Below are positions 8,694 through 59,556 of a stretch of 64,000 bases of DNA, in pieces (position 1 is the stretch's first letter; each line of letters starts with the position of its first letter). The position numbers and the translations under genes are program-made. Origin of the DNA: Psammoneis japonica (taxonomy: Eukaryota). The notes under the pieces were generated by a model. The model worked only from the letters and a program-made list of their open reading frames with translations. It was not told where the DNA came from and ran no database searches. The stretch spans positions 558,001 to 622,000 of the forward strand of contig QPGO01000025.1 of the NCBI GenBank assembly GCA_008632985.1, read 5' to 3'.

Positions 8694-8823
8694 CGTAACT
8701 CCTCGTCTGGAAAGCAGTGTTTGCCGCAACTACAGTATCTGCCGTGTGGGTCTGATTTGGAGATTTGCAGAGAGACTTGTGATTGGAGTTGGTGACACCT
8801 GCGTGTCAGGTTTTTGTCGCATG

Positions 8824-11072: not shown

Positions 11073-14000
11073 CTAGAATAATTTTTTACTAGCTCTCGCG
11101 TCTCGTTCAGCAAGTCTGGTTCGTTCCTCAACAAAGTCTGGCATCAAATTGTACCTTGTGACCATTCCAACGATCTCTCCTCCCGACTCACCGCCGAGAA
11201 CTACCACATGGCGTAGCCCTAGTGACGTGAACATCTCATATAATTTAGAGAGAGGACACGTTTCTGTACAGCAGTACGTGCCTCGATTCATGGCGGCATG
11301 TATATCAACCAATTCGTTTCTCTGTCGAATATCCAATTTCACAATGAGTCTGCCATTGACGTCCTTCGTGACAAACGTCGACGAGGAAGATCCGTCGTTC
11401 ATTTGAGGAAGGCTTTCTTCAATATGGGTGATGTCCGCTTTGCTGTGCCGGTGAATTGTGTCCACCAGCCACGCATGCTGGTCAAAGTTATCATCTTCTA
11501 GATTCGCTCTCTTTTCTGGGGTCAATTCCAAAAGAATCTCATGATATCGGTCGTCGCTTACGTTGTATGCTTGTTCAAGAAGCGGCGACTCCAGCACAGA
11601 CTCTCCTCCCGCTTCGTCGATTTCATGGGAAGGAGAGCGCAAAGCTGCAGGAACGGACGAATTATCATCATCCAGAAAGACACCACACTCAAGCAGAGCC
11701 ACCAGCTGGTCTCGTCGAACTAAACCCAAAAACTTGCCACTCCTCCCTACAACCGGAAAGCCGTGGTGGGTGTTGTCAATCAAAGCCCGTGCAATTGTCT
11801 CGGCCCGTTCGACTGCTTTCAACGTCACTGGTGGCCCGCTCATAATATCGCTTGCTTTGAGAGTGTCGTAGAACTGTTGACATGGTGCTCTAGATAGGGA
11901 TATCCGCTGATCTCCATTGCAATCTAGAATGAAGGTACGGGGGAAAGAAGATGGAAAAGAATTGAGGTAACAATGCAATGATTGTGAGTCGACATGATGC
12001 AAGTCCAGGCGTACCGTATACAAATCGTCAGTAAACAGGTTTCCCACATAGCGCGCCACCACAACGGTACAAATGACAGGGATTAAAACTTTTGTCTGTC
12101 CCGTTCCTTCCACTAAGATCACACAAAGGCTCACAGTTGATCGTTGAACCCCTGCCAAAGCGCCGCGGCGCCCAACAAGGCAAAAATGGCCGGGGAACCT
12201 CATGCGACAAGTACGCTTGGAAGACACACCGACAAATCCTCCTAAGCAGGACCCGATAAGCACGGTAGGCATAAATATTCCAGAAGGGAGAGACACGCCA
12301 AGTGTGATGGTCATGAGTGGGAAAAACAGCAAGCCAGTCAATAGCAGCGTCCTGGGGTCAAACTGAGTTGGGTCTGTCAATATTTCTTTGATGGAGTTCT
12401 CTGCACAGACAAAGTAAGGCCACAGAAGACGTCAGATGCAGATGCAACGTAAAGCCTCATCTACGTCCACCTATTCTTACCTCTCGAGCCGAAAAAGATA
12501 CTTCCGACCTCATTCACTTGTCCAGGTTCGCAATTGAATCTATGCTGCGGACTCAAGTTGAGAGGACGATCGTCGGTCGGTCACACCGTGACTTCGGCAT
12601 GCCCAGGAAGCAAAAGGTAACCAAAACGTCATTGTAGAAGTGGCAACTGATACAATGACCACCTCCAGAATCTGGTAGGCTACATGAGGCCTCCGTCCAA
12701 GTTTGACACGAATGAAGTGGCGGAATTCGTTCATTGACTTCCAAACGTAACAGAAGAGAGCCCCAAGCAAGCCACCACATGCACCAACCAATACGTAAAG
12801 AGGTATTTCAGCGAAGCGAATCAGAATCGCCCCATCTGGAGTGTCAAGGTTTCCCAATGAGATAACACTGAAGTCGGACAAATTTCCTCGAAACACAGCA
12901 AGACAAAAGGTGGCAATAGCGGTTGCCGTCAACGTCTTGAACAACATGGAATGGTCAAAGAAGCTAGATGCTTCTTCCAATGAGAAAAGTAGGCCGCCTA
13001 TGGGCGCTCCAAACGCTGAAGCAAAGCCAGCAGCTGCCCCAATGGAAATCATGTCCCTTCTTTCCCCATCGGTGCAGAAATGACTCAGGTCCAACAGCAT
13101 CTTTGAGAGCCACCTGTAGCGGGAACTTTTCTCTTCTCCCAACCAAGACTGGATGTTTGGTCCAAGCTTTGTAAGAGTACCTCCAATCATGGCACCAACA
13201 TGGATCAAGGGCCCTTCTGGTCCTACGGCCAGTCCAGAAGACACTGACAAGATTGTGGCTACAATCTTTGCAGGAAACAGTCTTTTCATTGTGAATCGCT
13301 TCACCCTAACTCCGTTCAGATATGCTTTGACTCCGGGTATACCAGATCCAATCGCTTCTGGAGCCCGTACTAAGCATAGAACTGATGATATCAAGGCCAG
13401 CACTAAGTTGTACAATAGGTAGCCGCCAAACAAGGACCCTGTAGGTATGCGATACGCAAAGCGATCCAACAAATTCGAACGGTAGCCAATGATAGTTTCG
13501 GTGGCAACGACGATTAGTATTGCCGTCAATCCAGTCAATAGGCCTGTAACACAGACTATCATCCACCTGGAAGCTGTTCTGCCAATGTAACTAGCTTTCG
13601 GTTTCGCCGGATGAAATTCTGAAGAACGATGCCGAGGAAAGGATCCATACGATGTGGCTTCTTCTTGCTTTGCATCATAATCGCTTCCCAAAAGACTGTA
13701 ATCCCCAGCACTGGGACGACCACTTTTGCGACGGCTCTTGAGGCGGTTTCTGGTCGCTTGAATGGAATACGTGTTGATGATGCGTTCAAAATCGAGACTA
13801 CCAAACTTTGATGTTGGTGCTGGAGGATGACGACTCTGCGACTTTTCTTCTCGCATTGGCGGCTCCTTGAGTGTTGAACTTGCAACATCATCCACTGAAT
13901 TTTCCAGCTTGCTAAAGCTGACCTGCTTATCTTCTTCCCCGAGTTTCGTGGTTATCTTTGAAACAGTCAACAGAACACGACATAAAGATAGCACATCACA

Positions 14001-14167
14001 TCATTGCGGACATCAAACATCGTCGGAAGTTGAAAGCCGACTGCGAGCACGATGCACGCGCGCGCGTATGAAAAGTATGTAAAGCGCGAAGCGTATGCGC
14101 GCACGTGCGTCGTCCGTGTCGGAGGGAGAAACCGGATCGGCGGGGCGGCTTTTTTTGTTGTCGACAT
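11073..14167 (-). CDS. CLC chloride channel/antiporter (CLC-6/7/CLC-d-like) with CBS domains; introns ~13956-14104, ~12403-12480 and ~11926-12014; several apparent frameshifts
   Basis: GSGIP, GPEGP (gating Glu), GAAAGFASAFGAPIGGLLFSLEE, PSGIFMP, HHGFPVV and FTSLGLRHVVV motifs. The putative first exon MSTTKKAAPP... splices in frame to ITTKLG. Confidence 0.88.
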
Positions 14168-14283
14168 CACGCAAGGGTCTAGGCAAACGATTTGCACTGG
14201 AGACTACTTTGCACTGAAAATAGTGTTGTACCGGTATTGAGAGTACCGGTAACTAAACTTCGTGAGTTGCTCGGCCGCAGACG

Positions 14284-15467
14284 ATGTGGAAGATTCTTTT
14301 GTTGCTGTGCCTTTCTCTGTTTCAATCAGATGCGTTCGTTGCTCCGGCCCGACCTGAAGCGCGCTCGCACTCGGTTACCCGAGGTGCACCAGCGTTTTCG
14401 GCCGTCGGTTCGACAATTGAAAAGGTTGGAAACACAGTGAAACGTGTAAAGGATTCCGTTCTCTCAAAGGAAAGGAGCAGGGATGATCTCAAAATAGGAA
14501 TTGCTGGTTTTTATGACCGCTCCAGTAAGCTGTGGGAAGATGTTTGGGGAGAGGTACGTGTTTCCGAGAGAGCAAGGATGATTCGCCGAGCATTTTCACA
14601 AGCAAACTCGTAGCTTATAACGTTCCTTCGTTGTTTCAGCATATGCACCATGGATATTATGTTCCAGAAGACAGAACCGATCACGTGCAAGCACAAATCG
14701 ATTTGATTGACGAGGTTCTAAAGTGGGCTGGAGCAGAATCATCATCGGTGAAGAACGTAGTTGACGTTGGATGCGGAATTGGCGGGAGCTCGAGACATAT
14801 TGCCAAAAAGTTTGGATGCAAAGCTCAAGGTATCACTTTGTCGCCCTACCAAGCAAACCGAGGAAATGAGCTGGCGTTGGAACAGGGACTGGAGGACCAG
14901 GCGTCCTTTCAGGTTGCGGACGCGCTGGATATGCCGTTTGAGGATAATAGCTTTGATTTGGTTTGGTCCTTGGAATCTGGAGAGCACATGCCGGATAAGA
15001 CTCAATTCGTCAATGAGCTCTTTCGTGTAGCAACACCGGGTGGTCGCATCATTATCGTCACATGGTGTCATCGTGATTTGAAGGAGGGTGAAACGTCTCT
15101 CGCGAAGAAAGAGGAACGACTCCTTGCGAAAATCAACCGTGCGTATTATCTTCCAAAGTGGTGCAGTGTGGATGACTATGTTAAACTGTTGGAAGCCAAG
15201 GGTGCCACAGATGTTCGTCGAGAGGATTGGTCCTATATCATCGCTCCTTTCTGGAAAGCTGTCATCAAAAGTAGTCTCAACTTGAAGAGTTTATGGGGTT
15301 TGATGAAAAGTGGCTTTTCTACCCAGAGAGGAGCATACGCAATGTTTCTCATGCTCAGGGGATTCAATCGTGGCCTCATTAAGTTTGGTCTGATTACCTG
15401 CACAAAGCCACGAGCTAAGGCAGAGGATGACTCTGAGAATAATGAAAACGAGGAAGATTTAAATTGA
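14284..15467 (+). CDS. VTE4: Gamma-tocopherol methyltransferase, plastid-targeted; intron 14554-14639
   Basis: GIAGFYDRSSKLWEDVWGE|HMHHGYY, SAM motif VDVGCGIGGSSR, SLESGEHMPDK, WCHR, AYYLP; signal peptide followed by SDA-F (ASAFAP-type). Confidence 0.93.
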
Positions 15468-15512
15468 AAATTGACGTTGTCTGCGGAGATAATGCTAAGC
15501 AATTGTAAAAAA

Positions 15513-16709
15513 TCATATGTCAGCTCCTGCAAAGTATTGATATCGTCGCATGTCCTCTTCGAGAGTTGGTTTCGGAATCACATCCGAATCGAGACCGCGC
15601 CCATTCAGCTCTGGCCTAAAGCAGACTTTGCTGACCGATGCGGTAGCCCCTGATCAAACAGAATCAGCTCTCCCTGATTCAGCTCTACCCAGTCTTCATC
15701 GATTGTTAGTGGTTTCGTAGCAATGACCGCTACGCGATCGTCGTCAGAAGTAACCTCCGAAAAGTCAACCGAGTAGTCAACATCACTGAGATTCGCCTGT
15801 CCGAACGGCGGCTCTCGAATTACATAATAAAGCCCATTCCAGACTGAAGATCCTGGACGAGAACCCGGCCAACTATAGACAAACAAGGTATGTGGTCCAC
15901 ACGTCAAAAGAAAGTTTAGAATGGTTCCATCCGGATCGTAGTCGACAATCTCGCGACATAATCTTGCAGAGTGTCATGGAGAACGGGGAGGGATGGGAGA
16001 CTGTCGAATTTCGCCGTAGCGCATTGAGGAGCGAACAAAAGATTGCTTCCGAATCTGTGTCTCCAACTGGGTGATAAACAGGCTCAGTTTTCACGGTCCC
16101 AAGCATTTTGAGTGCATGACCCTTTTTGAACAAGGAGACGTCTCCGTTGTGTGAAAATGCCCATTGAATGCCCCACATCTCTCGTTGGAAAGGATGCACA
16201 TTGGCCAACGAGACCTGTCCTTGCGTAGCGTATCGAATATGTGCCATCATATTTAGCGTTCGGATGGGGTATTCTGTGAGAAAAGACGCTATTGGCGACT
16301 CGCTCGCAGCAGCAGTGTCGTGAAAGGCACGCAATCCACGACCCTCATAAAAGCACAAACCCCATCCATCAGAATGAATATCAGTTCCTCCACCCCGTTG
16401 TGCAAATCCTATGAAAGAAAACCTAAAGTCAGTCGGTTTGGCAGCGTTCATGGCGAGTAGCTGACAAAGAAGTCTGGTATCAAATCGATGAGCTTGTGGC
16501 TGGCGTATTGAAACCCTTCTCAAAATATTCGCATCAAATAGATGAGCTTGAGACTGCAGTGTTGAAGAAAAGCCTCGTGTGGTATCAAATCGTTCAGTTC
16601 GTGACTGCAGCATTGAGAAACCCCGCACAAAACCAATGCGTCCGATCAAGAGCAAGAAAATGGAACATCTGCGGAATCTAGTCGACAATTGATCGTGACT
16701 ATACATCAT
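15513..16709 (-). CDS. Class II glutamine amidotransferase / Ntn-hydrolase, YafJ/DUG3-like, with N-terminal targeting extension; apparent frameshifts in the 3' half
   Basis: CQLLAMN..PTDFRFSF.GF..RGGGTD.HSDGWG, AHIRYATQG, NVHPF.RE.WG..W.F.HNGD, PVGDTDSE, VAVIATKPLT..E.W; C-terminal frame ends ...FAGADI at TGA 15513. Confidence 0.85.
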
Positions 16710-16905
16710 TGAGACAAAATGAACGGCAATCTAAGGATTTTGGTAAGCATCAGTGGAACGGAAGGGCTGCCGCTCTCAGGTTAGTTGACCGTTCAGAAAA
16801 ATAAATAAAAGTAGCATTCATAGGCACTGTAGAAGGCAGAAGTGAGAATTCTTTTGTTCACTGCTTCCAGCTTCCTGCTTCAAGTTCAAGCGCCAAGCGC
16901 AAGGA

Positions 16906-17133
16906 CACAACCTCGTTTGATGAGAATTTTTCTTAAATTTTCTCATGAAACGTTCACAACCTCCGTTTGAATGAGCATTTTTCCAAAATTTTTTATGAAA
17001 CGCTCACAACCTCCGTTTGATGAGAATTTTTCCCAACTTTTCTCATGAAACGCTCACAACCTCCGCACCGTTTGATGAGAATTTTTCTGAAATTTTCTCA
17101 TGAAACGCTCACAACTCACAACCTCCGTTTGAT
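16906..17133. repeat. Tandem array of ~4.5 x 50-bp units, each an imperfect hairpin
   Basis: Unit CACAACCTCCGTTTGATGAGAATTTTTCYYAAATTTTCTCATGAAACGCT starting near 16906, 16955, 17005 and 17055; CGTTTGATGAGAA pairs with TTCTCATGAAACG (1 mismatch). Confidence 0.9.
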
Positions 17134-18689
17134 TGCCATGATGCCTACGAACGGTGCACGGTGCCCCCTGCCTCCAACAACTGCATCCTCTTCTGTGCTC
17201 CGTCTTGCCCCTGCCTCAAAGAAGACACTTGGTGAGCAAACAGTTTCATCGCAATGCGCTGCGGTGCTGTTCGCCGGGAGAAAAGCAGCTCGCTTCGCTT
17301 GGCAGAAAGCAGAAATGCTGCAGGATCACCTGCCAGTGCCACCAACAATCAAGGATGAGCCAAAGGAGCAGTCCGAGGAGGAATTTTTTTTTCTTCAAAT
17401 CAAGCAGCAAAGCCGAATCTTTTTGGGGAGGTTTGGATGAATGGCGGAGTTTTGGATGGCGACTCAACGTTGTTGCTGATTGCCGCCGTGCTGCCATCCA
17501 TCTGTCTAACCAACATGCACTGGGACGAGATGGTGGCCACTTCATCAGCCCCAGTCGTGCCCACAGACGTCAGTTAGTTGCTCACACAGGTTTGTGGCTG
17601 GTTGGGCTCAGGCCAATACTTCACAAAGACGCATGGCAGGAGTCACGTTGAGGGCCAAGCAACCTCTGGTTTGGAGGCATCTGTCTTGTCACCAGGGTAG
17701 AAGAAGCCATGCCAGGACCAGAGATCACACCACCCAAGATTGTCATCATGGTCGTTGATTGTTCCTGCAATGTGTTTGACCATTGTGCTGCCCATCGCCT
17801 GTTTAAGAGAAACGTGCCCCTTGGAGTAACTTGAATCCAAGGATGGAACAACAAGGTGGCAAAAACAACAGCCAATCCAACCCGTGACTTGGCAAATGGA
17901 GAATTCATGAATCAACTGTTGTGCTTGGGGGTGCGTCTTTTGTGGCCTGTCGTGAGATGCAAAACTGCAAAAATCCAACAAGAGCAGTCCAAAGACACCT
18001 GCACATGACAGCGCTGCTTCACCCTCCACAACTGCAAAAAGGCTGCTTTGCAGTGATTGTTTTGTGGCACCAACAAATGCCATGACAGACTGCTCAAGTT
18101 GAATCAATTGTTCATGGATGATCCCCTGGTGGTTCTGTGTCAGCTCATGCCTGGAAACACGGATTGCCATCAGTCGCAGAAACATGGTCAGTTTGCCGAT
18201 GTCTTGTGGGTCAGCCTTTTAAAGAACCTTTCCCAAATTGAGGTGGAAGCCGTTGTCATCTTGCCTTCAAAGTCAAAATCTAGATTTCCATCAGGAAGCC
18301 TTTCTTTGGTCTCTTGCGAATGTGTTGTGGAGGATGTGGAAGGCTCCAGTTTCAAGTTGAGTCCACACCCTTGCTTGGTGTGAACAATTGCTTGGTGGGA
18401 GGGAAAGGATGACAGATGCACCTGCTGCACCAGAAACACTTTGGTTGACAGAGGAGGAAACATGCAGTCAATTTGCTGTGACCTGTGCCTGTCAGCTGCT
18501 GTGCTTGCTTTGCGCTCAAATGCCAACAGCCCTGCACTGTCAAGTTGAGGTGTCTGTGGCTTTCTCTCTAAACACACATTTTGCCATGAACTGTGTCTCT
18601 GCCCATTGGCTGTTGTCTTTTCTCTTGTTTTCTTGTCTCTCCACCAGCTGTTGAGGGGCAGTCTCTGCTGAGTTTTTTTGCACTGCCTG

Positions 18690-19550
18690 TCTCAGTTTCC
18701 CCTTCCTTCAATGCCCGTTTTGGTCTTGATGTGTTCCAGACCATCATTGCAGCTCCCACTGTGGTTCGTTTCGGGGGTCTGCATGTGCATGCCCTTGCAA
18801 AGCTTCACCAGTTCCTGGAGGGCAGTTGCATCTTGTGAAATCATGTCAAAGGGCATTTTGTGGGCCAGGGTGCCCGACTCGAGCTCCGTTTCACCCCTGA
18901 GGAGTTGGCACTGAATCGCGCCGGCAGCATGCATGTGCTTGCGGCACCACACAACTTGATTTTGGGGCTTCCATTTCCATTCAAGATGGACTCTGGGCAA
19001 TGTGCCATTTTGTCCCAATGCACAGTGTTTGCTCTTCATCCAAGTCTGCTTGCGAGCCAAACCAAAGTCACCAACTTTCAGCATAAGACCATCAGCACCC
19101 ATGAAAATGTTGTCGGGCTTCAGATCATGGTGAACAATCTTCTGGCTTGTCCAAGCCTTTAACGCAGATAGAATTTGCTTGGATGAGGACAATCCAATGC
19201 CTTGTCTTCTTCAGATTGGACTTGCTGATTTTGATTTGGTTTGTCAATGTGGAGCCAGAGCACAGCTCCATGACAGTGCCCATCATGAGCTTGCTGTTGC
19301 TGTTGCTCTTCTTGGCATTGGACGCCTTTGCTTCTGGCTGATTGACAATGAACCAACCAAAACTCGAACGACATTCTTATGATTGAGTTGACTCTGGCAG
19401 TGAACCAGCCAACAAAAGCATTTTGCAAATCGGGCTGGTCACACAGCTCCAGCTTGAGTGCCGCACGACACCCCTTTGCTTCGCCACTGAAGACAACTCC
19501 CCAGGCACCATTTCCCAGGATGTCGACCAAACCAAATTGTTCATGTTCCA
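18690..19550 (-). pseudogene. Degenerate Ser/Thr protein kinase
   Basis: ILGNGAWGVVFSG...AALKLE (subdomains I-II) and IVHHDLKPDNIF...LKVGDFGLA (VIb-VII) lie in different frames; HRD reads HHD. Confidence 0.8.
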
Positions 19551-22500
19551 CAGAAGACCGATTCAGCCTGCTCCAGAGGTGTTTTGGGCTCCTTCAAAGG
19601 CTGCTGCAGGGCTTTGGCCAGCCCTGCAAAACAAGAGTCTTGTTGTTCTGCTGATGGATTCTGGAGAATTCAAGCCACTTTTGAAGTTTGGAATTGTTCG
19701 TGAAAGCATTCAGACTGAAAACAGGATCAATGGCGGCATTGCAGCTTGCCTCTTTCCAATTGTCTCCATTGCAGAGACCTGCCAATGCATTGGAGATGAA
19801 CGGAAATGCGGAGATTTGCAGCAAGCCAAAAGGAGGTGGGACACTGGCTGGGACACTGGCTTGAAGCCGATCGTGTGTGCCCACACGTGGAACAAGCTCA
19901 TCCAGAGCACTGGCAACCTCAACTCGGCTCTTCAATGAAATGTAGTTGTCGCTTGAATGCAGAGTTTGCAAAGGGTCCCAACGGCTTCCTCTGTGCAGCC
20001 ACAAGGAGGAGACAGGAATGCGGGGCCACTGCTCATTCCCTCGACACCAATGTTGTCAACCCTGGTTGGTTTCGAGAGGTTGGAACCAAAATGAAAGCTC
20101 ACGGTCTCCACCTGAAGGATTGCACTCACATGCCAAATTGGAACTTTGGGTTTGCCTCTGCAACTGCTTCACAGTCTTGAAGCATTTCTTGAGCTTGTCT
20201 TCCATCTTCCGAAAGCACAGCATCAAACAGTCCGAGGAAGGAGTCACCACCCAGGAGCAGTTGGAGCACTTGGCACTTGATCATCTTCTTTTTTTCAAAT
20301 GGATCTGTTTCAACAACATTGAGCTCCAACTCATCTGCCAACCGCTGACAGTGTTTGACTCCATCACTGTAGAGAAAGACCCCCTTGAGCAGGTGCATCG
20401 TGAAATGATGGAGAAGTTCTTTTGGTGGGCTTCATCATCACAGTCTAAGATCAACTTGCGGATTGCAGAGATGAAGTCTGCAACCAACATGCAAAGATAT
20501 TGATTGCGCAACCTTCCATGTGAGGACACTGTGCTTGAGAAGACCTGTGTAAGAAGTTCAAAGATCTTCTATCATTGTCACCAAGGGCTCCCTTGTTGCA
20601 GTTTTCTTCCAGGCAAAGCTTCTTTTGGAGAAGACACATCCCATGGAGTTTGCAAATGCAGTGTTTCCACATGCCACCCAAAGCTGCCCCAACAGACTTG
20701 TTGGCATTGGGAATCCTTTGAGTTGCTAAACAAGTGACATCAGTGACTTCCTGCGTGACTCCCCATGAGGCAAGTTGTCCTCACAGATGATCGGGGTGCA
20801 GGACTTTTCATCTTTGGCAGTGGAAGATTTCTCGAGTTTCACGCTGGCCTCTTGTTCATGATTCTTTGAGAATGGACCAAGGTTTTGATCTTGGAACACA
20901 TTGGTTGCTTTCAGTGTGCTTCTGCACTTTGGGCTTTGGCATTTTAGCTGGTGTTTTGGGATTTGAGCCATCTTGTGGTCACTCAACAAAACAAGCAATG
21001 TGGTCCTGAACAAAGTTCCAAAGTTGTGTGTGTCTTTGCTCTGCTGCCTGCTGTCTTTTTGTTTTGAGTTTTTGTCTTGAGATCACGCACAGGGAAACTG
21101 TGAATCTTTTCATGAATGATTCCAAACTCCACTGTGCTGTCGAGCAAGTGAGCGCACGATTCTTCCTTCCAGGTTAAAAAAGCACACAGTCTGTGACAAA
21201 AAAGGCACTTGCACATGGACTGGACGAAAGAATGTCATCTCAGAAATTGGCAAGAGAAAGCACAGTCAACAGGGCCCTGCCACCTCCCAAAAAATGAGCA
21301 GCTTGTGAGTTGCCCCACATTTGCTCACTCATTCAGCGCTGTTTCAAACACGAAAGTGAGAGAACCCCCAATGCCACAACAGGCTTGTAGTCAAGAGAAG
21401 GAAAAATGCACCCAGTGACCAACTTGAAACTGCCAGCCGTGAGCAGCCTCCTGGGCTTCAGCAAGCTGTTCCTCCTCTTTGTTGGTTGGCAGATGCTTCA
21501 ACAGTTCATCACACAATGCCTTGTTCTCATCAGCAGCAGCCCCCTCTCCACACAGCAGCACCCAATGCATCTGCAGCAGCCAAGACTGTTGCATCAGAAG
21601 ACACATCTGATGCAGCCAAGGCACACCCCAAAAGCAAGAGTGTCCAAGTCACCCATGTGTGATGCCAGTGACATGCTGGGCCAAATCAAAAAAGGAGCCA
21701 GCAGTGTCACAATGGCGCATTGGCTCCTGGGAGCTCATTGATCCAGGAAACCATTGAAAATCTGCCGGATCATTGCGCTGGTCCAAAGCAAACAATGGTC
21801 CACCTTTGCAACCAACAAGAGCTGTTGGCAGCATGAAGATGCCCCACGCCACTCTTCCATGCCACACCCAAAGGGAAATCAGCATCGGATCAAACACACA
21901 ACAACCCTGATCCTGGGATGCTCATCAACAGTCTCCCATGAAACCAAGCCATCAAGCCTTTTGGGACCAACGTCACAACAGATGCTCAGAAAAGGTCAAG
22001 TGAAATCAATGTTGGAGGATGATTCTTGATGGCATCAGAAACAGTCACAACGCTGATGCTTTTGGGAACAAAGAATGGCAGCATGCATGAGAACATCATC
22101 CCGTTCACACAAAAGCATGTCACATCATGTCCATGTCCATGCTGTGCAGATGTGTGGTGTGCAGAATGAAACACCAACAATGCAGCACTGCATTGATCAA
22201 AAAAACACCATTGAATCTCTCTCAACAAGGACATGGGTTGCTCCTGCACTTCACTGTTGATCACCTGGGTGGTCACAACTTCTTCTTTTGCTGCTTCCTC
22301 TTCAGATCTTCACTTTCTGCCACCTGTCCCAAGCACCCAAGCCTCCCTCCTGGTGACTTCTTCTCTGCAACAGCAGAGACTTGGACAACTCTGGCAGAAT
22401 TTCTTGCACTGCTTTCATTCACACCCTCTCGCATCTCCCACCTCTCTCCTTTCATCTGCCAATTGCCTGTCATCACCACACATTTTCCCTTTGGCTGCAA

Positions 22501-24949
22501 CAGGCAGCATGCATCACCTTTCCACCCATGTGATCTCCCATCTGCTCCTCTCGGCCCCCTGGTGTGTGCAGAGACACCTTCCCAGCCCCCATCTGCAAAG
22601 TCGTGCCCTGCATGCTGTGCTGTGCAACCCTTCTGCTCCTCCATTCTGACTGCCCTTTTGAAGCCTCCATCTTCTATCATTCACACCTCTGCTTGGGCTC
22701 TTTGGCCCCTTGCTTGAATTGTGCAAAGACAGAGGAAGCTTGGGCTCAGTGGATTTGCTGTGTGTGCAAAAAGATTGACTTTGGAATCTGCACTCCACAA
22801 CCAAATGTTGTGCTCTGAATGATGCCAACCCAGCACCTTGGCAGCCTGTGAGCAGCTGGTGTTCTTCAACTCCACATTCCATGATGTCAAAGCAACAAAC
22901 ACAAAAATCTTTCAACAAGGCGTGTCCCAGGTGGAATGACATGATGAACATGTGTTTTTTTTTGCAAGTCACCATGGTGGTGTGTGGTTGTTTTTGACAA
23001 CTTCTTTCAATCTTGCAATTGCAGAAGTGATGCCAATTGACAACATGGACATGACATGAGTTGCAAAGAGAAAATGGTGAATGCTGACAGTGTTTTCTTT
23101 CCAAAATGGACCTCTTTGCATTCATGGGATTTTTGCAGGTCTTTCATGCATCACAGAAAGTCAATGCACAAAGCAACTAAAACAGATCTTTGTGGCACAG
23201 AAATGACATTGTGGACCAATTTGGATGCAGCATGGATTCGATGGCAACATCTTCATGTTGAATGATTGTAGAGCAGGTGGTCAAAGTGGTGCAAGAAGAG
23301 GGAGCAGAAACTTTTCAATTGAAAGCTCTGAAGCCTCCACATGTTTGCAGCTGTTGCTGCAGACCAATGAAAACATTCCAGTTTTGATGGTTTCATTTTT
23401 GTTGCCACAAGGCAGAAATTTGATGCCAATTTGGGTGGTCATTGTCACTGTGTGTTGGTGTTTGTTCTTTGCATTTTTTGTTTTGGCTGATGAAATCTCA
23501 TGGAGCACTTGACCTTGAGCTGGTGACCTCCTTCTTGGTGTGGCAGCAAAAATTCCAAAGTGTTTTGGTCACAGATTTCCCATTTTTTCAGGAATCCTTC
23601 AGGCAAAAAAAGATCCTTCAGGCCCACTTTTTCCCAAAAACAAAGTTTGCACCCACATCACTGAGTGGAGCAGGAAAAATGGCCAACCATGACCAACAAG
23701 CATGAGACCACAAATTGGCTGCTTGGGAGCAAATAAAGGAGATGTGGTGGCTGCTGATGGAGAGACAGCACACTGAAAAGTGGAGCTTCCAAGTCATTTG
23801 TGGAAGGAAGGGCAGTTTCTGCACACAAGAATGAACCAAAGAGCAATGCTGGGCAGCAGCTGCAAGATTTTTGCAGAAGCTGTTGGTTCATTTGCATGGG
23901 AGCCACGGCTGCACAATTGTCTCATTGGGTGACTGCCAAGAAAACAGCAGTGGGTGGGTGGGTCCAGTTTTGAGCTGTGCCATGTTTTTTGTCCTGTCTG
24001 GTGCCAATGGCCTGTGCTGGCATCTTCCATCCTCAGCTGTCTGTCTGTCCTCCACTCATCTGCTCCATGTGACAACCAGCTGTGACTTGCTTGGTCCATG
24101 ACATCTTCCCATTTCTTGGCTCAGAGTCTTGACTGTGATGTGCATCTTTTTTCAGAGCTCACAGATCATCTGTGACCCATGGTGCAGTCTCAACACTTGA
24201 GTCATTGAGATTGCAGGGCCGCTGTTGGTGCCACAAAAGAAGTGTTGAAGCATGGCTGAAGTGTTGGATCATGTCTGAGGAAAATTGAGTGGGGAAGCAA
24301 CATCTTGAGATGGGAGCAGTGTTGGGAAACAGGCAAACAAAACATTCCCACACCCCACATGTGCACTTTGAAGGCTTTGACACCATCTTCAAGGCCCTCT
24401 TCCTGATGCTGGGTTGTGGCTCTCACCCACTCTTGGACACAGGCAGGCATTTCAAAATGCAACAAAATGCTTTGCCCCACTGTGGTGCTGGGGCTAGCAG
24501 TGGTGCATCATCAAGCCCTTGTTGAGTTAGAGGGACTCGTCATTTTCTCAAACATTTTGAGGGCAGTTGGCAACAGCATGCTTTGACAAACATTTGGCTT
24601 TCTTTCTGTTTAAACTGCAGAAAAGAAGTTGAAGAGCTTGGGTGGTGGCAGGCATTGCAGGGCACTTGTGCCTTTTGTCAGCTCTTGGACAGGCTTCTCA
24701 TCTTCATTTGCCACATCCTCACATTTGTTTCAATCTGCTCCAAGCTTTGTCTCTGTGTTCTGGCAGAGACATTTTTTCTTCATGCTCACAGAGCCACAAC
24801 CAACAAACAACTCATTGACCAATGCATGGAAATTGAACAGCAGCAACAGTGCCACACCCAAGAGCAAAATGAAAACATTGTCAATGACAGTTGTCTGTGA
24901 ATTGCAGTCATTGTTGAGATTGCAGCTGCAATTTGACAAAAAATGAGCT

Positions 24950-26350
24950 CAAGAAATCAAGGTTTTGTCATGATGCAATGTGACTCTTGTGACGGCAACA
25001 CAAAACAACAAGATGACACACTCAGCCTCAATCTCCATGGTTGAAGGTGAGTCATGACTCTCCCTCTCAACCAAGAAAGAGGTTGAGCTGCCAGCCCATT
25101 GTGAGAGCCTTTCACCCATCCAGAGCATTTCCACAGAGACACCCTTTCATGCACTGGTCAGCAATGGCTCAGCAGCACTGACAGGTTGAGTGGCAATCTT
25201 CAAATTCTCCACTTCAGTGCAAAACCAGTGATGTGGAATGCCCATGTGTTTGGTTGGTGGAGTGAGTTTTGGCACGTGGGCAAATGTGAGAGACAGGCAG
25301 CAACATTGTCTCACACACAAAAGATGCTGGCAGCAGGGTTGTGGGGTCAATGGGAGATTCATTGGCACCATCATCTTTGCAGCATGAGATGCTTGAAGCA
25401 GAGTGCAGGAAAACTGAGCTGCTTGGTGGGTGGCATGCATGATGTCTCCTGACCTGTGGCTGTGGCTGCGTGATGCATTGGCACCCTTGCAACAGCACAA
25501 CAGATCAGTGGCTCATTGAAAGGCAAGCTGTCCTTGTCCACACCACTGCTCTTGGGCAAGCAGGGAGCAGGTGTTCCCATGCAATCTTCCATCTTGGTGG
25601 CTGGCATGGCCCAGGAAGGCCTTCTTGACAAGTCCAGACAAGTTGGCAAAAACAGCGCTTCTTCATCTTGATTCTGAGGAAGTTTCTGACCTCTCCTTTT
25701 CATTGCAGCACTCAAATTCATGGTGCTTTTTGTGTTCAGCAGAGGGGCTCTCCTCCAGCCTTGTGGAATTGGCCTCAAGTTTGTTGGAGCATTGTCAGCA
25801 GAAACAGCATCATCAACATGAGTGGCACGCAGTGCATCCTTCTTGAAACATGCAGACAGATGAGGTTGACAGCAGATCATGGGATTCATCTGGCTGTGCT
25901 CCAGCACCAGCAACAGACCAGCTCTCAGTTTCTCACAAAAGCATCACAGAGATTGCTTCAGGCCATGTGAGCCTTTCAAAAGTCATGTGGCACCATTGTC
26001 AGTCCAGACAATGCTGGCACAAATCCCTCAGGAGAGGCTGTGCACACACACTCTGGCTGAGTTGACCTGAGCTTGTTGTGAAAATGCAGCAGTGCAGTTG
26101 ACGACTTGATGTGTGGCCCACGCTTCCTTGAGAGAACAGCAGCAAGCAAGAGGCAGATGCCAACCCACCACTCCACATTTCTGCTGAAGGTTGCCACAAA
26201 CACAATGTTGTGCCTTCCACTTTTCATGGAGCACCACAATCCCATGAGGGTCTCTTGAGTCTCAAAGCTTGCATGCTGGATTGTGGCACAGTCACTCACA
26301 TCTTGAGTGCACTGCTCAACAATTGCCCACGCACAACTCAAAGCCAGCAC
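24950..26350 (-). mobile_element. Ty1/copia LTR retrotransposon relic (reverse transcriptase to RNase H start)
   Basis: HVDD (YVDD), TPA...GVDKD..PFNE, RSGDIMHATHQAAQF (RPDIAFAVHQCARF) and STMEIEAEC (STMEAEY), in the expected order on the minus strand. Confidence 0.75.
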
Positions 26351-27039
26351 AGCTGCTTCAAGTTTTCACAACCTCAGCCCAGTTGCCACAGTCTGGTTTG
26401 TTCTGAGCTTGATGCAAAGATGGCACATCAGACTCTGGTCTTCTTGGTGGCAGCACAGGCTTGCTCGTCCTTGTCTTGGACAGAATTCATTTTGTGCTTC
26501 CATGTTGAGATGCAAGTTTCCACCAATGCAAGCTGTGCAAGTTGCAATTTCTTGTGTCCAACCAGCACATTTTTGGACTCAACAACTGGACCAAGATGTG
26601 ATTCATCAAAAAAGGGCTTGGGGCAGACAAAACTGACCTTTGCTGGACTCAGCAGACCACTCAAACTTGGCTGGGCTTCAACTTGAGTGGAGATGCTTGA
26701 GATGCTGCAGGTGGTTGCAATGTTTTGGGTGGTGGAAGCTCATTCTGTCCAGCTGTTTCTGATGATGGTTTGGCAATGGAAGGCAGCAGGAGCCTCAGGC
26801 TTCTGAGTTTTGGGTGACAAAACTTGAGAGAAGTCCTCATCCATGGTCACAGGAATGATGTGCCAAAGATGGTCATCTGAGCTGGAGTTGGTGTGATGGG
26901 CAGTCAGATGCTGGACACAAGCCCAGGATTGGGTTGAAAAGTTTGACAGATGTGAGATTCATGTGCCAGCGGGCTCTGTTGCAGACAATCTTCTGGAAAT
27001 CTTGAGAAACCAGACAAAGTGCTCAAGAGGCTTCATGCT

Positions 27040-28450
27040 AGATTTTGAGTGCACCACAAAGTTGATCTTTGCCAAACTCACCCTGAAGGCACTCAACCCT
27101 CAATGAAACAGGTGTCAAGGCAATTGAGCATGCAGCTGAGCCACAGAAAAAAAGTGCTGCACTTATTTTCTGCAGGAATGATTGAATGCCACCAAGATGC
27201 ATGGTTGCACTGTTCAGACATTTTGGTGCCCCTTGGAAGACTTGCAGACAGGGCTTGCAAATGGCACTCATCAATGACAAAGCACTCAATGACGTCAAGC
27301 GTGCAACATCTGAAGAGACATTGTTTGTGCACCCAGATTGCAATGAGCCATTTGAAGTGCACGACAATGCCTTTGGTGATCATCAGGAGCATGGAGCAGT
27401 GATGTTGCAGGCTGGCAGACAACTGGTGTGCACTCTGCACCAGAAAGCTTGACAGCACTCAGCTGAGCCATAAAGTGCAGGAGAGGAAATTGCTCACCAC
27501 TGTCAAGACTTTGACAGAACTCAGATCTGGTGCTCCACTTCTTGGCCATTGTGTTGGTTGTGCACACTGGTCATAAAATTTTCACTTGCAAGGCATTCAG
27601 TGCTGAGCATGCAGTGCATTGTTGGCACTTGACACATGAAGAATGTGGTGTGAATCATGACACAGCATCAAAGGTCACCACAGTTTGGTTGCACCAGAGC
27701 GCCGAGTGCCATCCCAACCTCACTCCATCCTTGGACTCCATGGCAGCAGATGTAATGCTGGAAGTGGTGCATTCTCTTTTAGGAAGCCTTCATGGTGGAA
27801 AACCAGAGGACAGTTGGATGACTCCCATCAGCTTCAAGAAACTGTGAACAAAACAAAATGAGAGGACAAGAGCCCAGGCAGAAAGAAGCTTGAGTGTCAG
27901 ATGAGTGCTCTCCACACACTCTTCTTTGTGGGGAAGGGCAAGCTTCCACAAGACAGTTGATTTGCCACAAGGACAAAATCATCATCCCAGTGTCACCTTG
28001 TTTGGTTCTGCCATGGGTCCCCAAATTTCACCAGGATCACCACCCTTTTGTTTGCAGTGTTCTTCTGCAGGGAGTGTGGGTTTCTTTGGAATCACCATGA
28101 GCACCCCTTTGTCACACACTGATGTGTGACACAGACAGACATGCATCAAAACTGGCACATTGGGAATTCTGGCCCACGCTTCCCCTGTCCCCTGCACTCT
28201 CACTCTGTCATGAGCCATGAGCTGTGAGCCTGGGACATGGAAGAAAATGTGCCAGTCAAATGATGATTGATTGCATTGTCCCATCAACACCACAGCCCTG
28301 CACCATGAGCTTGTCACAGAAGCATGCCACAGCATTGGGGCAGAAACAACTTGTGGTTGTTTCATTCATTTTCATTCAAGACTGGATGAGTGCAAAATCT
28401 TCACTTTTTTGGCTTGGCACTGACTTGTGTCATTGCTTGTCAAAGTCAAA
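27040..28450 (+). mobile_element. Ty3/gypsy LTR retrotransposon relic (RT end, RNase H, integrase start)
   Basis: ETLFVHPDCNEPFEVHDNA...GAVMLQAG (LxYPDFNxPFxIYTDAS..QLGAVIxQ), CWHLTHEECG (RWRLLLEEYG), LICHKDKIIIP. Confidence 0.7.
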
Positions 28451-31400
28451 TCCTCTCCATTTGCACCTTCTTGGCTGCAAGCAATGGCATGGAAACTTGT
28501 GCATGTTTTTGTTGTTTTCTCTCAGTGGCTTTGTTTTTGTTTAAGAAGAACCCTTGTTTTGGCATTCATTGCAAAATGATTTTCTTTTTTCAAGAAGCAA
28601 GCTCACCCATCATGGACTGCATTTTTTCTCAGTGCAGTGCAGGTTGTCAGCCCATGTGATGCCTTGGCATTGTTTGTTTGTTTGTTTGTTTCTGTGTCAG
28701 CTGTCAGCCATGGCAGGACCACAGTTCTGAGATGATTTGAGGTGAACGCAGTCTGGGGCCTCATTTTTGGTTGGCACGTCAGGGCCCTGAGATTTTCATT
28801 GATGTTTTTGCATGGCTGCAGCACTGGTTTCTTGCTGCTTGAGAAGATTTGAGTGCACAGAGCCACTCGAGACACTCCAGCAGTGACACCAAGTCAAAAG
28901 GTGAGCTCAGGTGACAAAATTGCCAAAGGTCAGTTTGCAAACCCGCTCAATGGGGCTTGCACTTTTTGCAGGTTGCCATGAAATGCACCTCCTGAAGATG
29001 AGACACAGCACAGCTCCCCTGGACCAAGTTGCCCAATTGGACCACACCAATCCAAATAGAGTTCTTGTTGCATTGTTCATCAACAAAAGCCAGTCATCAT
29101 TTACAGAGTGATTTCCAGTGCTTGGATTGCTGAGAGAAAACTCTGCACCACATTTGCAAAGTTTGGCACCCACTCCACTTTTTTGGCTCTTGTGCAGAGA
29201 GTTGTTCTTGTTGACCTGCGCTGTTCTTGTTCACGGTGAACACCACCACCCTGATGTGCATGACATGCTTCTCCCAGTCTCTGTTGCACAGCACCCAATC
29301 CACATCATTGAGAGAGACTGCACATTGTTTTGGTGCAGGCTGGATGGCTGAACACATGCATGGATGGATGACTGTGGCTGAATCCACAAAGCACTGCTCG
29401 CGATGCTGAAAACACACCTGCCCAAAAACAGTCATTGATTTTTTGCTGTGGTCCACTTGTTTTTTCTTCCTCTCCCCTGAGCCCTTTCAGGCATTCTTCC
29501 TTCACACAAAATTGCTCTCATTTCCTGGGTGTTCCCCCCAAAAGGGCAAGGTGACTCCCCCCTGCACCCTGGTCATTTTGGGGATCCCCCAAATGGGAAA
29601 AAACCAAACTGCCAGATGAGCATTGTTGCTGCGCAGCAGAAGCAGATGAGACTGGGTGGTGTCATCTCCAGTTCTTGTGCCATCCTGGAGAGAGGCACAA
29701 GCTGAAATGTCCATTGCTCAACACACCTCTGCTGGTGTGGTGTGTGAGCTGTGGTGCACTCCAGCACATGCTCGAAGTGCAAAGCATGTCAGCAGAGAAA
29801 ACAAAAAAATGAAATCAAAAACATGAGAAAAAGTTGCCAGAATGGGTGCAGCTGAAATCTGATGTTGCCCCACTGGATGAATCCCCATGCACAGTGGATG
29901 TGACAGGGGCACACACTGACTGTTCAGCATTGAGGGGAACTCTTCCACTTCTTGTGGGGCAGATGTGACAGTTGACCCTGCAACAGGGAAGCTCAAGATT
30001 GCTGAAGCACTTGCTGAGTTTGCTGACATTGTGTCTGTGGCACCATTGAGCAAGCACAGCTCTGCAGATGTCCATGACCAAGAAAGACAATCTTTGACAC
30101 CAGAGAAGCCAAATTCATGGCTGAATTTAACCAATGATGCAGGACAACTGTAGCCTTCTAAAGAAACCTGGAGTGCACATGCCAGACAGCCAGAAACATG
30201 TTTCACTCATTTTCAGTGCAGGGTGTGGTGCCAAGCAAAGATGACCCATCTTGGAGTGGCCTGCCACCTCGCACTCATTCACCACACACACAAGCTGTGC
30301 ACACAACACCACATGAGCAAGCCCAACACAACTGGTGTTCAGCAGAGATGCTCGCACATTGAGCCAAGCAGAAATGTGCCAGGACAGAAGGCAGAGAGGA
30401 TGAGCTGCCCAGACAAACAACAAGCAAGAAAACACTGAGTGCAAGGAGTGCCAACATGCTGTCAGATGTCAGACAACTGGCACTTGTCAAACAGGAAGAA
30501 CAAAGGTCCAAATGAGGAGCTGACAGTTGTGCAGCAGGCCCTGGCAGAGTTGTCCATGCAAATGACAACAGCACATTGTGGCACGTGCAAGATGGCATGC
30601 TGACAGACACAGCACACCACAAATCCATGGAAGATTGTGCCCTGCCCTGTTGTCAGCAAGCAAGAAGGCATCTGCTGGCACTCTGAGGCCCTTGTTGTTG
30701 TGGAGAGCATGCAGTGCATGCACTGTGCTGACAGCTGGCAGATGTGCCAGCAATGTCTTGCATCATGAGACTCTCAAAGCAGGGGGTGCACAGCTCAAAA
30801 GTGCTTTTGTGCAAAAGTCAGCATGAGACTCATGCTTGTTCCACTGAGTGGGTGTGTTTCAACAAGGCTGAGTGTCAAAGACCCACATCATGAGGATTGC
30901 ACATTCAACTGGTGGTCTTCCAAAATCATGCCTGGTGAATGAAAGCTCTGTGCACAAGGTTTTGCCTGCTGTGCAGTGTTCACTGAAAACCAAAATGATG
31001 TTGGAGCGAAGCTTTTTGTTTGCAAGCTGTGGCAGTTGCAGCACACATGTGTGGTGTGAAGAGAGTGCAAAGCTCACATGGCCAAATGTTTTGCTGCAAC
31101 ATGTGCGCCAACTCAGAAACAGCTCTCTTGGCTCTCACAATTGCCAGCCACAGCAATCTTTGCAGCTGCTTGGACACCCATCTCCCAATTTGGTGCACGA
31201 GGCACAAAAAACAAGTGTGCAATGCTTCCCACGTGGATCTGTTGGACATGGGTTGGTGCAGAGCTGACACAATGTGTGGTCAATGGCCACAGTCCTTTGC
31301 ACGCCAAGTCACCACTCTGTGTCCTCAGACCAAAGCAAGAAAAAGCACATTCTCACACTGGCTGGTGACACCTGCACTCCTGGAAATGGACCAGCACAAC

Positions 31401-31994
31401 AGCCGCTCAAAGTGGACAACGTCGACATGTGCAAGCAATGCAAGCGGTTTAGGGCCTATAACGTTATACAATTGTTGCTCGACACATGCAAAGTATAAGC
31501 AACTCGAAACTTTCGCTGGCATTACACAGATGTTAAATCGAAATTTTTGGACAGTCCTTGTTTCACAACGGTAAAGCTCGGTGAATCGTTCGCCGAATTG
31601 CCGCGCAAATCGCCAGCAAGACACTGCTTTATGAGGCTCTCTATGACTTAGAAAGTAGATTCTTTCGGTAGAAGATCGTTGCTTATTCGTCAAGTAAGGT
31701 TATGTCTATTCTATCAGCATGTAAAATCAAGAGATATCGCCGTTGTTTCCATGCTTTTTAACACGGTGAAGTACGTACGTAATTTTGTACCAAGCGCTAC
31801 TGCATGCTCAAATGCTGTGGTTTTGCTGACAAAGGTAAATATCCCGCGGATACATCGCACATCCAACATCGCATCGCCACAAAGATGGTGGCAAAGTAAC
31901 ACTCGTAGTCGTCGCAAAGACGCACCCGAGCAGTTCGGGAAGCTTTTGTATCAACCGGAGGAATAGCTCAAACTATAAAGTGTGTCTGGGAGAT

Positions 31995-33332
31995 ATGAAG
32001 AAACGAATGTTTCAGCAATTGGCGCGCCGTCGCAAGGAAGGAACGTTGCGCACCCTTCGTACGGTCGAAGAGTTGGAAGCATACGAGAAGCGTCCTAACG
32101 TTGACTTTTCCAGCAACGACTATCTTGGTCTGGCACATTCTGCTCATCAACGAGATAAAGTCAAGAATTTAAATACTGAGTGGGAACGAAAGAAAGCAAG
32201 TCATCATCTTCTTGGAGCAACTGGTTCTCGCTTGCTGTCGGGGGATTCCCTCGAGTGTCGTCGTCTGGAACAGTATTTGGCCAAGGTACACCACAGTGAG
32301 GGAGCTCTCATTTTCAACAGCGGTTATGATGCTAATTTGTCGATATTGTCTTCTGTACCAATGGAGGGTGACGTTGTAATCATGGACGAACTGGCACACA
32401 ATAGTCTTGTCATGGGCGTCAGAATGAGCAGACTGGATCCGTCCAATTCACTGCATCTGTTTCGTCATAACAATGTCGAAAGTTTGCGATCCGTGCTGAA
32501 ACAGTTCTCGTCGAGTCAACTACACCGGATCTTGGTCGTCGTAGAAAGCGTTTACAGCATGGATGGTGACGTATCACCGCTTGCCGACATTCTCGACTTG
32601 GCGCTTGAGTTTGGCGCAGAAGTAATGGTCGACGAAGCCCATGGTTTGGGTGTCTACGGACGCACCAATAAAACAGACATGACTCTCCCCGAACATCAGA
32701 AAGCTTCACTAGACAATCCGAGTACATCAATGGTTGGAGGGACTGGAGTTCTGGCTGCGCTTGGATTGGAGACACATCCGGCGCTCCTGTGCAGTGTGTT
32801 TACTTTTGGAAAAGCTGCTGGCTGCCATGGGGCGGTAGTTTGCGGCGCGCGGGTCCTATTGGACTATTTGATCAATTATGCTCGCCCGTTGATATATTCT
32901 ACTGCCTTACCTGTTCATTCTCTGTTGTGCATTCAGTGCGCATATGAAACAATGTTGGCAAACGGCGACCCCTTGAGAGCAAACGTGTTTGGTCTAGTTA
33001 AAACGTTTAGGAGGGAGATAATGAAGATATTGCAACGCACGGGACCCAGTGAAGGCTCTGGTCAGACGGTTTTGCTATGGCCAAGTCCTTCGCCTATTCA
33101 GGCATTGGTTGTTCGTGGTAATGACAATTGCATGGAGTTCTGCCGCAGGATACGAACTAGATCGGACATTATTCTGTACCCGATTCGGAGTCCGACGGTG
33201 CCAAAAGGAGAAGAACGCATTCGCATCGTTTTGCATGCACATAATACAGAAGAGGAAGTTCTTGAATTGGTGAAGTTGATTCATGAAACGCTGAGCGACA
33301 TGAATCTCATCAAACTAAATAGCCGTCTGTAG
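31995..33332 (+). CDS. bioF: 8-amino-7-oxononanoate synthase (biotin synthesis) with C-terminal PTS1 (-SRL)
   Basis: DFSSNDYLGL, GATGSRLLSG, FNSGYDAN, DELAHNS, ESVYSMDGD, VDEAHG, PLP-Lys TFGKA.G, IRSPTVPKG..RIRI. Confidence 0.95.
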   Translation: MKKRMFQQLARRRKEGTLRTLRTVEELEAYEKRPNVDFSSNDYLGLAHSAHQRDKVKNLNTEWERKKASHHLLGATGSRLLSGDSLECRRLEQYLAKVHHSEGALIFNSGYDANLSILSSVPMEGDVVIMDELAHNSLVMGVRMSRLDPSNSLHLFRHNNVESLRSVLKQFSSSQLHRILVVVESVYSMDGDVSPLADILDLALEFGAEVMVDEAHGLGVYGRTNKTDMTLPEHQKASLDNPSTSMVGGTGVLAALGLETHPALLCSVFTFGKAAGCHGAVVCGARVLLDYLINYARPLIYSTALPVHSLLCIQCAYETMLANGDPLRANVFGLVKTFRREIMKILQRTGPSEGSGQTVLLWPSPSPIQALVVRGNDNCMEFCRRIRTRSDIILYPIRSPTVPKGEERIRIVLHAHNTEEEVLELVKLIHETLSDMNLIKLNSRL

Positions 33333-55949: not shown

Positions 55950-56240
55950 CCTTGGTTCAAGACTCAGTTGACATGCAAAAATTGCTGGAAACTGCCTTTG
56001 ATGTTTTTTGTCCAAGACTTGGCGACAATGAAGCTGTCTTCAAGAGCTCAACCAAACCGGAGTCTGCTTTGAAGAAGAAGCACAGTGCGGTTGCCTGTCA
56101 CAGGACTTGTGAGGCACAAGCCGCTGGAATGGTGTGCATTGCTTGGGAAGATGGGCGCACGAATTTGGCAGACGAACTGCTGGCCAAGTTGTCACCTGGA
56201 CCGGGTTTGCTGCATGGGCGCAGCTTTTTCCCACCCCCAA
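55950..56240 (+). mobile_element. Ty1/copia RNase H relic
   Basis: LGDNEAVFKSSTKPESALKKKHSAVACHRTCEAQAAG.V.IAWEDGRTNLAD.L.K matches the copia pattern DNxAV...PESTLKKKH.SIAYHR.REAVAAG...NLADxxTK. Confidence 0.85.
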
Positions 56241-56514
56241 AGTGAAAATGCTGCCCTGGAACAGGGCAGCATCAGGTTGCACTTGTCTGTCGATCTGGCC
56301 CGAGTGGAGCCAGTGTCAGCTCAAGGGGGCTGAACAAATGCTGACACACTGTCACGAATGTGGGCAGTTCATGTGCTGTTGGCGAGTGGTCCACTGTTGC
56401 TTGTTTGGTGGTCCCAGTGGCACAACACCTCACAACTCTAGAGCCTGTTGATGCTGTTCAACACTCAGTCTTGTCTTGCACCCAATTCTCAGCTGTCATG
56501 GCGGCATTTGCTCA

Positions 56515-59500: not shown

Positions 59501-59556
59501 GATTTTGCACCCTTTGCTGCCATTTTGCGCCCTTTGTGATTTTGCGCCCTTTGTGA
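56515..59556. repeat. ~3 kb minisatellite of interleaved 17- and 20-bp units
   Basis: Units TTTTGCRCCCTTTGTGA (17), TTTTGCRCCCTTGBCCA (17) and TTTTGCACCCTTTGCYGCCA (20). Confidence 0.97.

Follow-up and report, generated by a model that had tools for sequence, protein, structure and literature searches.

Loss of TpA and CpG from three blocks of a Psammoneis japonica contig, probably through regional, strand-symmetric hypermutation of silenced repeat DNA

Three blocks in a 64,000 nt stretch of Psammoneis japonica DNA (assembly GCA_008632985.1, contig QPGO01000025.1, positions 558,001 to 622,000, here called the window, with positions counted from its first nucleotide) have lost nearly all of their TA dinucleotides and most of their CG, with a corresponding gain of TG and CA. 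Judged from the composition and from repeat copies within the blocks, this is probably the outcome of a regional hypermutation of TpA to TpG or CpA, symmetrical between the strands, combined with the decay of CpG in silenced repeat DNA. An earlier note on this sequence had described the invariant tyrosines of retroelement motifs at 25015-27650 as being read systematically as His or Cys, and had proposed that TpA steps mutate on both strands alongside CpG decay. The second of these claims is supported by the mass balance of the dinucleotides, by the symmetry of the strands, and by the polarity of the repeat copies. His and Cys at positions where Tyr is expected would then be the coding read-out of a regional DNA mutation process.

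The window is eukaryotic DNA, with long genes, mostly without introns, in three stretches referred to here as host DNA. The blocks from which TA and CG have been erased are all free of genes and are the following:

3200-6000: block A, gene-free, between two unmutated tandem gene copies; TA 2-5/kb, CG 5-26/kb; last regular TA at 3209, TA back at 6038
17000-31400: block B, 14 kb, contains the pol-type motifs; TA 0-7/kb throughout; right edge sharp, with CG back at 31404 and TA back at 31450
50800-63800: block C, 13 kb, includes a satellite; TA 0-4/kb, CG 3-30/kb; edges at about 50839 and about 63789

In host DNA, TA occurs at about 39/kb and CG at about 61/kb. The block edges are sharp, being defined to within 200 nt or less, and host genes 100-450 nt away from them keep normal levels of both dinucleotides. 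In block B, the CG density goes from 36/kb at 17-18 kb to 2-6/kb in the core. Blocks A and B each have a left edge where TA ends ahead of the drop in CG density, by about 180 nt and about 500 nt, respectively, and across 17-22 kb there are 1-7 TA/kb yet still 14-36 CG/kb. At the remaining four edges, the TA and CG boundaries agree to about 130 nt. Because the erasure of TA extends further and is more complete than that of CG, the TA loss, which is wider or faster, and the CG loss are probably two processes acting on the same DNA.

The dinucleotide counts, with the ratio of observed to expected (o/e) in brackets, are as follows:

Blocks, 29,452 bp: TA 67 (0.03), CG 359 (0.21), TG 3396 (1.78), CA 3193 (1.81)
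Host DNA, 32,302 bp: TA 1250 (0.59), CG 1958 (1.01), TG 2381 (1.15), CA 2160 (1.10)

At host densities the blocks would be expected to contain 1140 TA and 1785 CG. Over the 29,452 bp, TA and CG together are short by 2499, against a gain of 2449 for TG and CA. The density of pyrimidine-purine (YR) steps is 238/kb in the blocks and 240/kb in host DNA, and the GC content is the same at about 0.48. In the core, the o/e of CG is 0.08. The other dinucleotides are little changed, with no depletion of AA, AT or GA (AA o/e 1.24 in the blocks versus 1.17). The strands are affected alike, with a TG share of 0.494 outside the satellite and no runs of a single type (z=0.3).

Conversion of TA to TG or CA leaves a TAY codon no outcome other than CAY (His) or TGY (Cys), whatever the frame. 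Over six frames, 34 of 58,894 codons in the blocks encode Tyr, versus 1399 of 64,592 in host DNA. Per 1000 codons, from host DNA to blocks, Tyr goes from 21.7 to 0.58, TAA and TAG together from 17.1 to 1.7, and CGN from 60.6 to 12.2, the last being a five-fold reduction of CGN Arg; His goes from 32.8 to 50.3, Cys from 33.9 to 63.4, and Gln from 37.5 to 61.6. Trp codons are also more frequent, and the sole common stop codon is TGA. The region of the motifs, 25015-27650, has 4 TA, 12 CG, 302 TG and 323 CA, with 3 Tyr codons out of 5268 in six frames, a departure much too large to be due to chance. There is no TA at all in 25001-27000, therefore Tyr, TAA and TAG codons are impossible there in every frame.

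The six strings named in the earlier note are all present, with the codons given for them:

19124-19132, minus strand: HHD, codons CAC CAT
25018-25026, minus strand: AEC, Cys encoded by TGT
25809-25820, minus strand: HVDD, His encoded by CAT
27330-27338, plus strand: HPD, His encoded by CAC
27638-27649, plus strand: EECG, Cys encoded by TGT
56093-56104, plus strand: ACHR (cited earlier as copia AYHR), Cys encoded by TGT

The substitution of Tyr by His or Cys stands insofar as Tyr codons are nearly absent. However, it is common to all frames of the blocks and not specific to conserved sites.

Repeat copies within the blocks have diverged by exchanges of TG and CA. In 1134 aligned columns of intra-block repeats, there are 22 TG<->CA double substitutions and 11 other double transitions, while two unmutated duplicates have 5 and 15, respectively, in 4098 columns (odds ratio 16, p=5e-11). 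Single changes in the same intra-block alignments comprise 2 TA<->CA and 13 involving CG, versus 42 other transitions and 51 transversions. A TG<->CA double must pass through a TA or CG intermediate, yet few of the singles remain, therefore TA and CG are short-lived in the blocks. These alignments indicate that the mutation process continued beyond the duplication of the repeats, long after the death of the elements. No unmutated progenitor was found within the window by self-comparison in a purine/pyrimidine alphabet, and no mutated host paralogue was found in the blocks by tblastn with 49 host ORFs.

Two tandem repeats illustrate the process at an edge and within a block:

16906-17115: tandem repeat of a 50-bp unit in 4.1 copies, straddling block B's left edge
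56516-59558: satellite in block C, 3 kb, 17-bp unit with higher-order units of 54/71 bp, about 171 copies by Tandem Repeats Finder

At one site of the 50-bp repeat, units 1-4 have TA, CA, CA and TG. The outer units retain TA and the inner ones have lost it, and TA last occurs regularly at 16934 and 16994. In 126 units of the satellite, the first site is GCAC in 32 of the commonest unit type, GCGC in 13, or else GTGC, and a second site is CCGCC, CTGCC or CCACC. With TA at 0-2/kb and CG at 25-30/kb, the satellite has been caught midway through CpG decay. As TGA is the only surviving stop codon, the satellite yields a spurious ORF of 940 aa (56489-59311, minus strand). It also has a marked T/C strand skew.

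The sequence of the blocks was compared with two public runs, X1 and X2. Run X1 holds 66% of the words sampled from 24000-28000. Its Logan contigs, which are assembled from exact 31-letter words, leave none of the 30 bins of 14000-33000 uncovered and have a word depth of about 50-90, alike in the block and its flanks, and one of them (31234-31784) spans the right edge of block B. The X1 pieces listed for the region of the motifs differ from the window by 1-2% (9/909, 10/771, 12/546 and 7/710). These contigs exclude an assembly artefact, but not every sequencing artefact. Differences between the window and the runs number 454, and among the 40 listed, TG in the window corresponds to CA at 17194-17195 and CA in the window corresponds to TG at 17217-17218. 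Several others of those listed set TA or CG against TG or CA, for example TA/CA and TG/TA at 17507 and 22624, which are no more than hints of new mutation. In the unmutated genes at 14000-16600, 14 of the 20 listed X1/X2 differences are YR-step transitions, with CG or TA set against TG or CA, where about half of transitions would be expected, although the sample is small.

Run X2 has contigs on the flanking genes, including a spliced form, and none on 17170-31751; this uncovered part is not evidence of silence. At 14551-14638, an X2 contig omits 86 nt with GT..AG ends in a methyltransferase-like gene. This spliced contig makes the run resemble RNA, despite its listing as 'DNA?'; none of the runs listed as sharing the sequence is given as RNA.

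The elements within the blocks are more difficult to name. The earlier note had regarded the motifs as those of retroelements, however this identity is not established. The candidate relics are as follows:

18695-19593, minus strand: relic of a protein kinase, with HHD at 19124-19132, from a zone where TA is gone and CG half lost
24949-26365, minus strand: putative copia-type pol relic (HVDD; EAEC ending at 25018), from motifs only, identity not established
27186-27847, plus strand: putative gypsy-type RNase H relic (HPD, EECG), weakly supported

The ORFs carrying HVDD, AEC and EECG (the last at 27515-27847) match no Pfam family at E<=0.1. For the HVDD ORF (190 aa), there are no matches at E<=0.001 among 1,835,955,588 representatives, an Atlas search gave no lead, and the PDB has no match at E<=10, which is also the case for the gypsy-type ORF. 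The [HCY]VDD and EAE[HCY] motifs are taken here to be those of copia elements. A pair of them on the same strand, 600-1000 nt apart, turned up once in 300 sequences simulated with a first-order Markov model; the pair was defined post hoc and lends the copia-type relic some support. The HPD ORF (27186-27452) has a match to RT_RNaseH_2 that, at 16.1 bits (E=0.012), falls short of the Pfam cut-off of 29.8 bits.

Reading block B through in six frames, with X at stops, gives the kinase as the sole Pfam match. No retroelement Pfam family was found among the 12 ORFs of block A, nor at E<=0.05 among the 74 ORFs of block C, and the ORF carrying ACHR (55940-56242) likewise matched none. A weak match at 53158-53412 to CxC4, a KDZ-transposase-associated cysteine cluster (E=0.045, far under the cut-off), is all that Pfam gives in block C by way of a transposon.

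The kinase relic is recognisable. Its 18695-19210 portion (minus strand) matches Pkinase at 6e-11 with 42.7 bits, over the Pfam cut-off of 31.7 bits, and in the PDB the relic has 293 matches at E<=0.001, the best being MAPK6 at 4.5e-8. About 50 residues can be recognised, from HxDLKPxN to DFG, and the ORF of the N-lobe (19162-19593) is unrecognisable. The PDB kinases have HRD where the relic has HHD. No homologue was found at E<=1e-5 among 224 candidates, a threshold set too strictly given the 5.8 billion entries of the database, or at E<=1 among the 583 candidates of a near search. The presence of this relic and of the satellite means that the targets within the blocks extend beyond retroelements.

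In these blocks of dead repeat DNA, TpA has given way to TpG or CpA through A:T>G:C transitions on either strand, at about 50:50 and independently at each site, and CpG has also become TpG or CpA, presumably through the ordinary deamination of 5-methyl-CpG. For the TpA step, an enzyme acting on silenced chromatin may deaminate the adenine (A>I), the product then being read as G, as has been proposed for Bigelowiella natans (Mettrop et al., bioRxiv 10.64898/2026.01.13.699255). Adenine deamination is put forward tentatively, as a plausible chemistry at somewhat less than even chances. The enzyme, the signal that targets it, and any role in defence are putative.

Several points weigh against the reading of the blocks as hypermutated repeat DNA, or limit how far it can be taken. 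Most of the relics have no proven identity as retroelements. Both of the natural kinases that were retrieved carry HHD (2/2, in a region-limited search whose retrieval is biased to shared words). Polarising the changes by the conservation of motifs, as the earlier note had done, is unsafe on both counts, and its reading of HRD to HHD as CGT to CAT is likewise not safe. Back-mutation was scored for the kinase relic only, with a hidden Markov model (HMM) made from the two retrieved kinases and a greedy optimisation, which overfits. Reversal of TG/CA gained 15.1 bits, versus 2.4 bits for the RY control, however 4 of 30 decoys gained more, with a maximum of 32.9 bits. When subsampled to 108 sites, the reversal gained 3.9 to 11.2 bits with the same overfitting two-kinase HMM. 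A comparison of codon reachability (3/16 versus 1/16 mismatches, and 2/19 versus 0/19) lacks power. Run X1 is possibly the assembly's own sample, its library type not being on record. The coupling of TA and CG loss is without precedent, since CpG is never mentioned in the available text of the B. natans preprint. Lastly, only the mutational footprint is seen here, in which A and T as the target in TpA are indistinguishable by sequence, and at least two chemistries fit.

The second of these chemistries acts on thymine. A dioxygenase of the TET/JBP type could oxidise the T of TpA to 5-hydroxymethyl- or 5-formyluracil, which would mispair with G and give T>C. TpA is self-complementary, so that T>C before A is A>G after T seen from the other strand, and the symmetrical outcome, with its TG share of 0.494, is compatible with both routes. 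The T of TpA and the 5-methylcytosine of CpG are also both 5-methylpyrimidines ahead of a purine. 5-formyluracil is mutagenic, and the 5-hydroxymethyluracil of dinoflagellates is biased to TpA. On the other side, the differing footprints of CG and TA speak against one shared step, and the sole experimental precedent proposes adenine deamination, likewise without proof (10.64898/2026.01.13.699255). A thymine route is considered unlikely, and adenine deamination is retained as the tentative chemistry.

Alternatively, the mutations could have been made in RNA, through A>I hyper-editing of retroelement transcripts by an ADAR-like enzyme before reverse transcription, the copies being inserted already mutated. 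ADAR prefers a 5' U (10.64898/2026.01.13.699255), and the relics had earlier been read as retroelements. Editing before retrotransposition would affect retroelement transcripts only and have a loose 5' preference; here the blocks are unbroken over 3-14 kb and include the kinase relic and the 3-kb satellite, and AA is not depleted while about 95% of TA is lost. Repeat copies have diverged in place by TG<->CA, a tandem repeat switches state across a block edge, and CG decays on the same DNA. Editing at the RNA level is thus very unlikely, and mutation of the chromosomal DNA itself is preferred.

It could also be that nothing has mutated, the blocks being foreign or ancient DNA that was poor in TA and CG from the outset, with HVDD, AEC and HHD as natural variants. 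The two natural kinases with HHD would fit this, as would the searches, none of which brought up an intact relative for the pol relics. The YR total, however, is that of the host, the loss equals the gain, copies differ by TG<->CA doubles, and CG, CA and TG alternate at a single site of the satellite. The complete absence of TA from 25001-27000, which leaves no Tyr, TAA or TAG possible in any frame, also argues against it. This explanation is highly improbable. An artefact in which modified bases of heterochromatin are miscalled as TG or CA can hardly be credited: some long-read chemistries do miscall systematically at methylated motifs, but the X1 contigs match the blocks at 98-99% at a depth of about 50-60 and span one edge, miscalls on two strands would leave TA and CG in mixtures rather than none, and the relics also have frameshifts and other substitutions.

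The host DNA between the blocks has retained its genes. By ORFs and Pfam, these include two tandem HNOBA guanylate cyclases, a DUF285 protein, a ClC-like channel, a Myb protein and a JmjC protein. The tandem duplicate flanks block A:

163-2811 and 6067-8698: tandem HNOB/HNOBA-guanylate cyclase duplicate, 91.9% identity over about 2.65 kb

Both copies have TA and CG at the normal level and have kept long ORFs. Since this 2.6-kb tandem gene duplicate (92%) is unmutated, duplication alone is not the trigger of the process. A single N is present within block A, at 5761. At 43878-47486 is an ORF of 1202 aa in which about six internal repeats of 318 nt form Cys-rich modules, and which also has a long tail of Pro/Thr/Ser; the DUF285 protein adjoins it and carries a similar Pro/Thr tail. 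Rfam and tRNA scans of the window gave no matches.

In its widest form, the proposal would be of a diatom mutator directed to chromatin that goes on erasing TpA from silenced repeats on both strands, by A>I or an equivalent T>C route, works independently of CpG methylation and extends slightly past it, is here at saturation with TA as a transient state, is of the same kind as that of Bigelowiella, and belongs to an old defence found across the SAR lineages (Stramenopiles, Alveolata and Rhizaria), mirroring in direction the repeat-induced point mutation (RIP) of fungi. Taken as a whole this is speculative and rather doubtful. The narrower reading of the blocks as regionally hypermutated, if correct, would place a TpA-specific A:T>G:C mutator against selfish DNA in a second, very different eukaryotic lineage, and the process would be seen here at completion, readable straight from the sequence. 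Such domains would have a genomic marker in the loss of both TA and CG with YR constant and GC unchanged. It would explain transposon relics of this genome that are missed by profile searches and the occurrence of long spurious ORFs, because only TGA stops remain, and it cautions against polarisation from single motifs. The question of the enzyme would become testable in transformable diatoms, and the pattern bears on how chromatin sets the mutation rate locally.

Among known systems, hypermutation by ADAR and APOBEC resembles the blocks in leaving clusters of deaminase-type transitions in selfish nucleic acid, ADAR having a 5' U/T preference (10.64898/2026.01.13.699255). These enzymes act on RNA or replicating cDNA with a loose context, according to the same source. 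Here, by contrast, the substrate is chromosomal DNA of mixed origin, the specificity for TpA is near-absolute, and the strands are equal.

In Neurospora and other fungi, RIP causes C>T changes at CpA or another CpN, creates TpA, and lowers GC. It is a process of repeat mutation (PMC3318451) and is similar to that proposed here in that dense regional transitions kill repeated or selfish DNA and leave a dinucleotide signature. The C>T direction of RIP does not apply, as the blocks have lost TpA and gained CpA, and their GC content has stayed at about 0.48. The duplication trigger of RIP does not apply either, the 91.9%-identical tandem duplicates being unmutated, with the caveat that these are genes and are possibly protected or under selection.

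The CpG decay of methylated transposons is a closer parallel for the CG half of the pattern, with CG>TG/CA in repeats and normal CG in genes. The o/e of CG in the blocks, 0.21 (core 0.08) against 1.01 in host DNA, and the GCGC, GCAC and GTGC variants of the satellite agree with it. Decay driven by methylation accounts for the CG half only; the loss of TA is stronger and wider. In the diatom Phaeodactylum tricornutum, cytosine methylation is documented (PMC6604790; PMC9998398), and the mutation accumulation data seen from that species have CG, CC and TG as mutagenic contexts, with no TpA effect reported (PMC6604790).

The closest likeness is to Bigelowiella natans. In mutation-accumulation lines of this species, two integrated viral regions had a mutation rate raised about 1000-fold, every mutation being a change of A to G or of T to C within TpA, and elsewhere in the genome there are clustered 1-kb windows that are poor in TpA and rich in CpA and TpG (10.64898/2026.01.13.699255). 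TpA-poor coding sequences were enriched for reverse transcriptase and DDE domains, and an ADAT2-like DNA adenine deaminase was proposed (10.64898/2026.01.13.699255). As in that case, of nucleocytoplasmic large DNA viruses (NCLDV) and virophages, the change is of TpA to TpG or CpA only and affects particular non-host regions beside a normal genome; the footprint in the window is likewise of TpA alone among non-CpG steps, on either strand, and is confined to three sharp-edged blocks.

The two cases differ in several respects. B. natans is a chlorarachniophyte in which a rate was measured in lines, whereas the window is apparently from a diatom and holds a footprint only. Depletion in B. natans is partial (Rho TpA 0.45, NCLDV region), and in the blocks hardly any TpA is left (o/e 0.03). 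The targets are viral DNA in B. natans, and here dead repeats, a satellite and a kinase relic. CpG has also been erased here, and the text of the preprint, as far as it was available, is without any mention of CpG or of diatoms (10.64898/2026.01.13.699255). A full-text literature search found no description of the TA/CG-erasure pattern in diatoms. The pattern is therefore of a kind that has been described once, in the 2026 preprint, and is seen here in a new lineage and at saturation.

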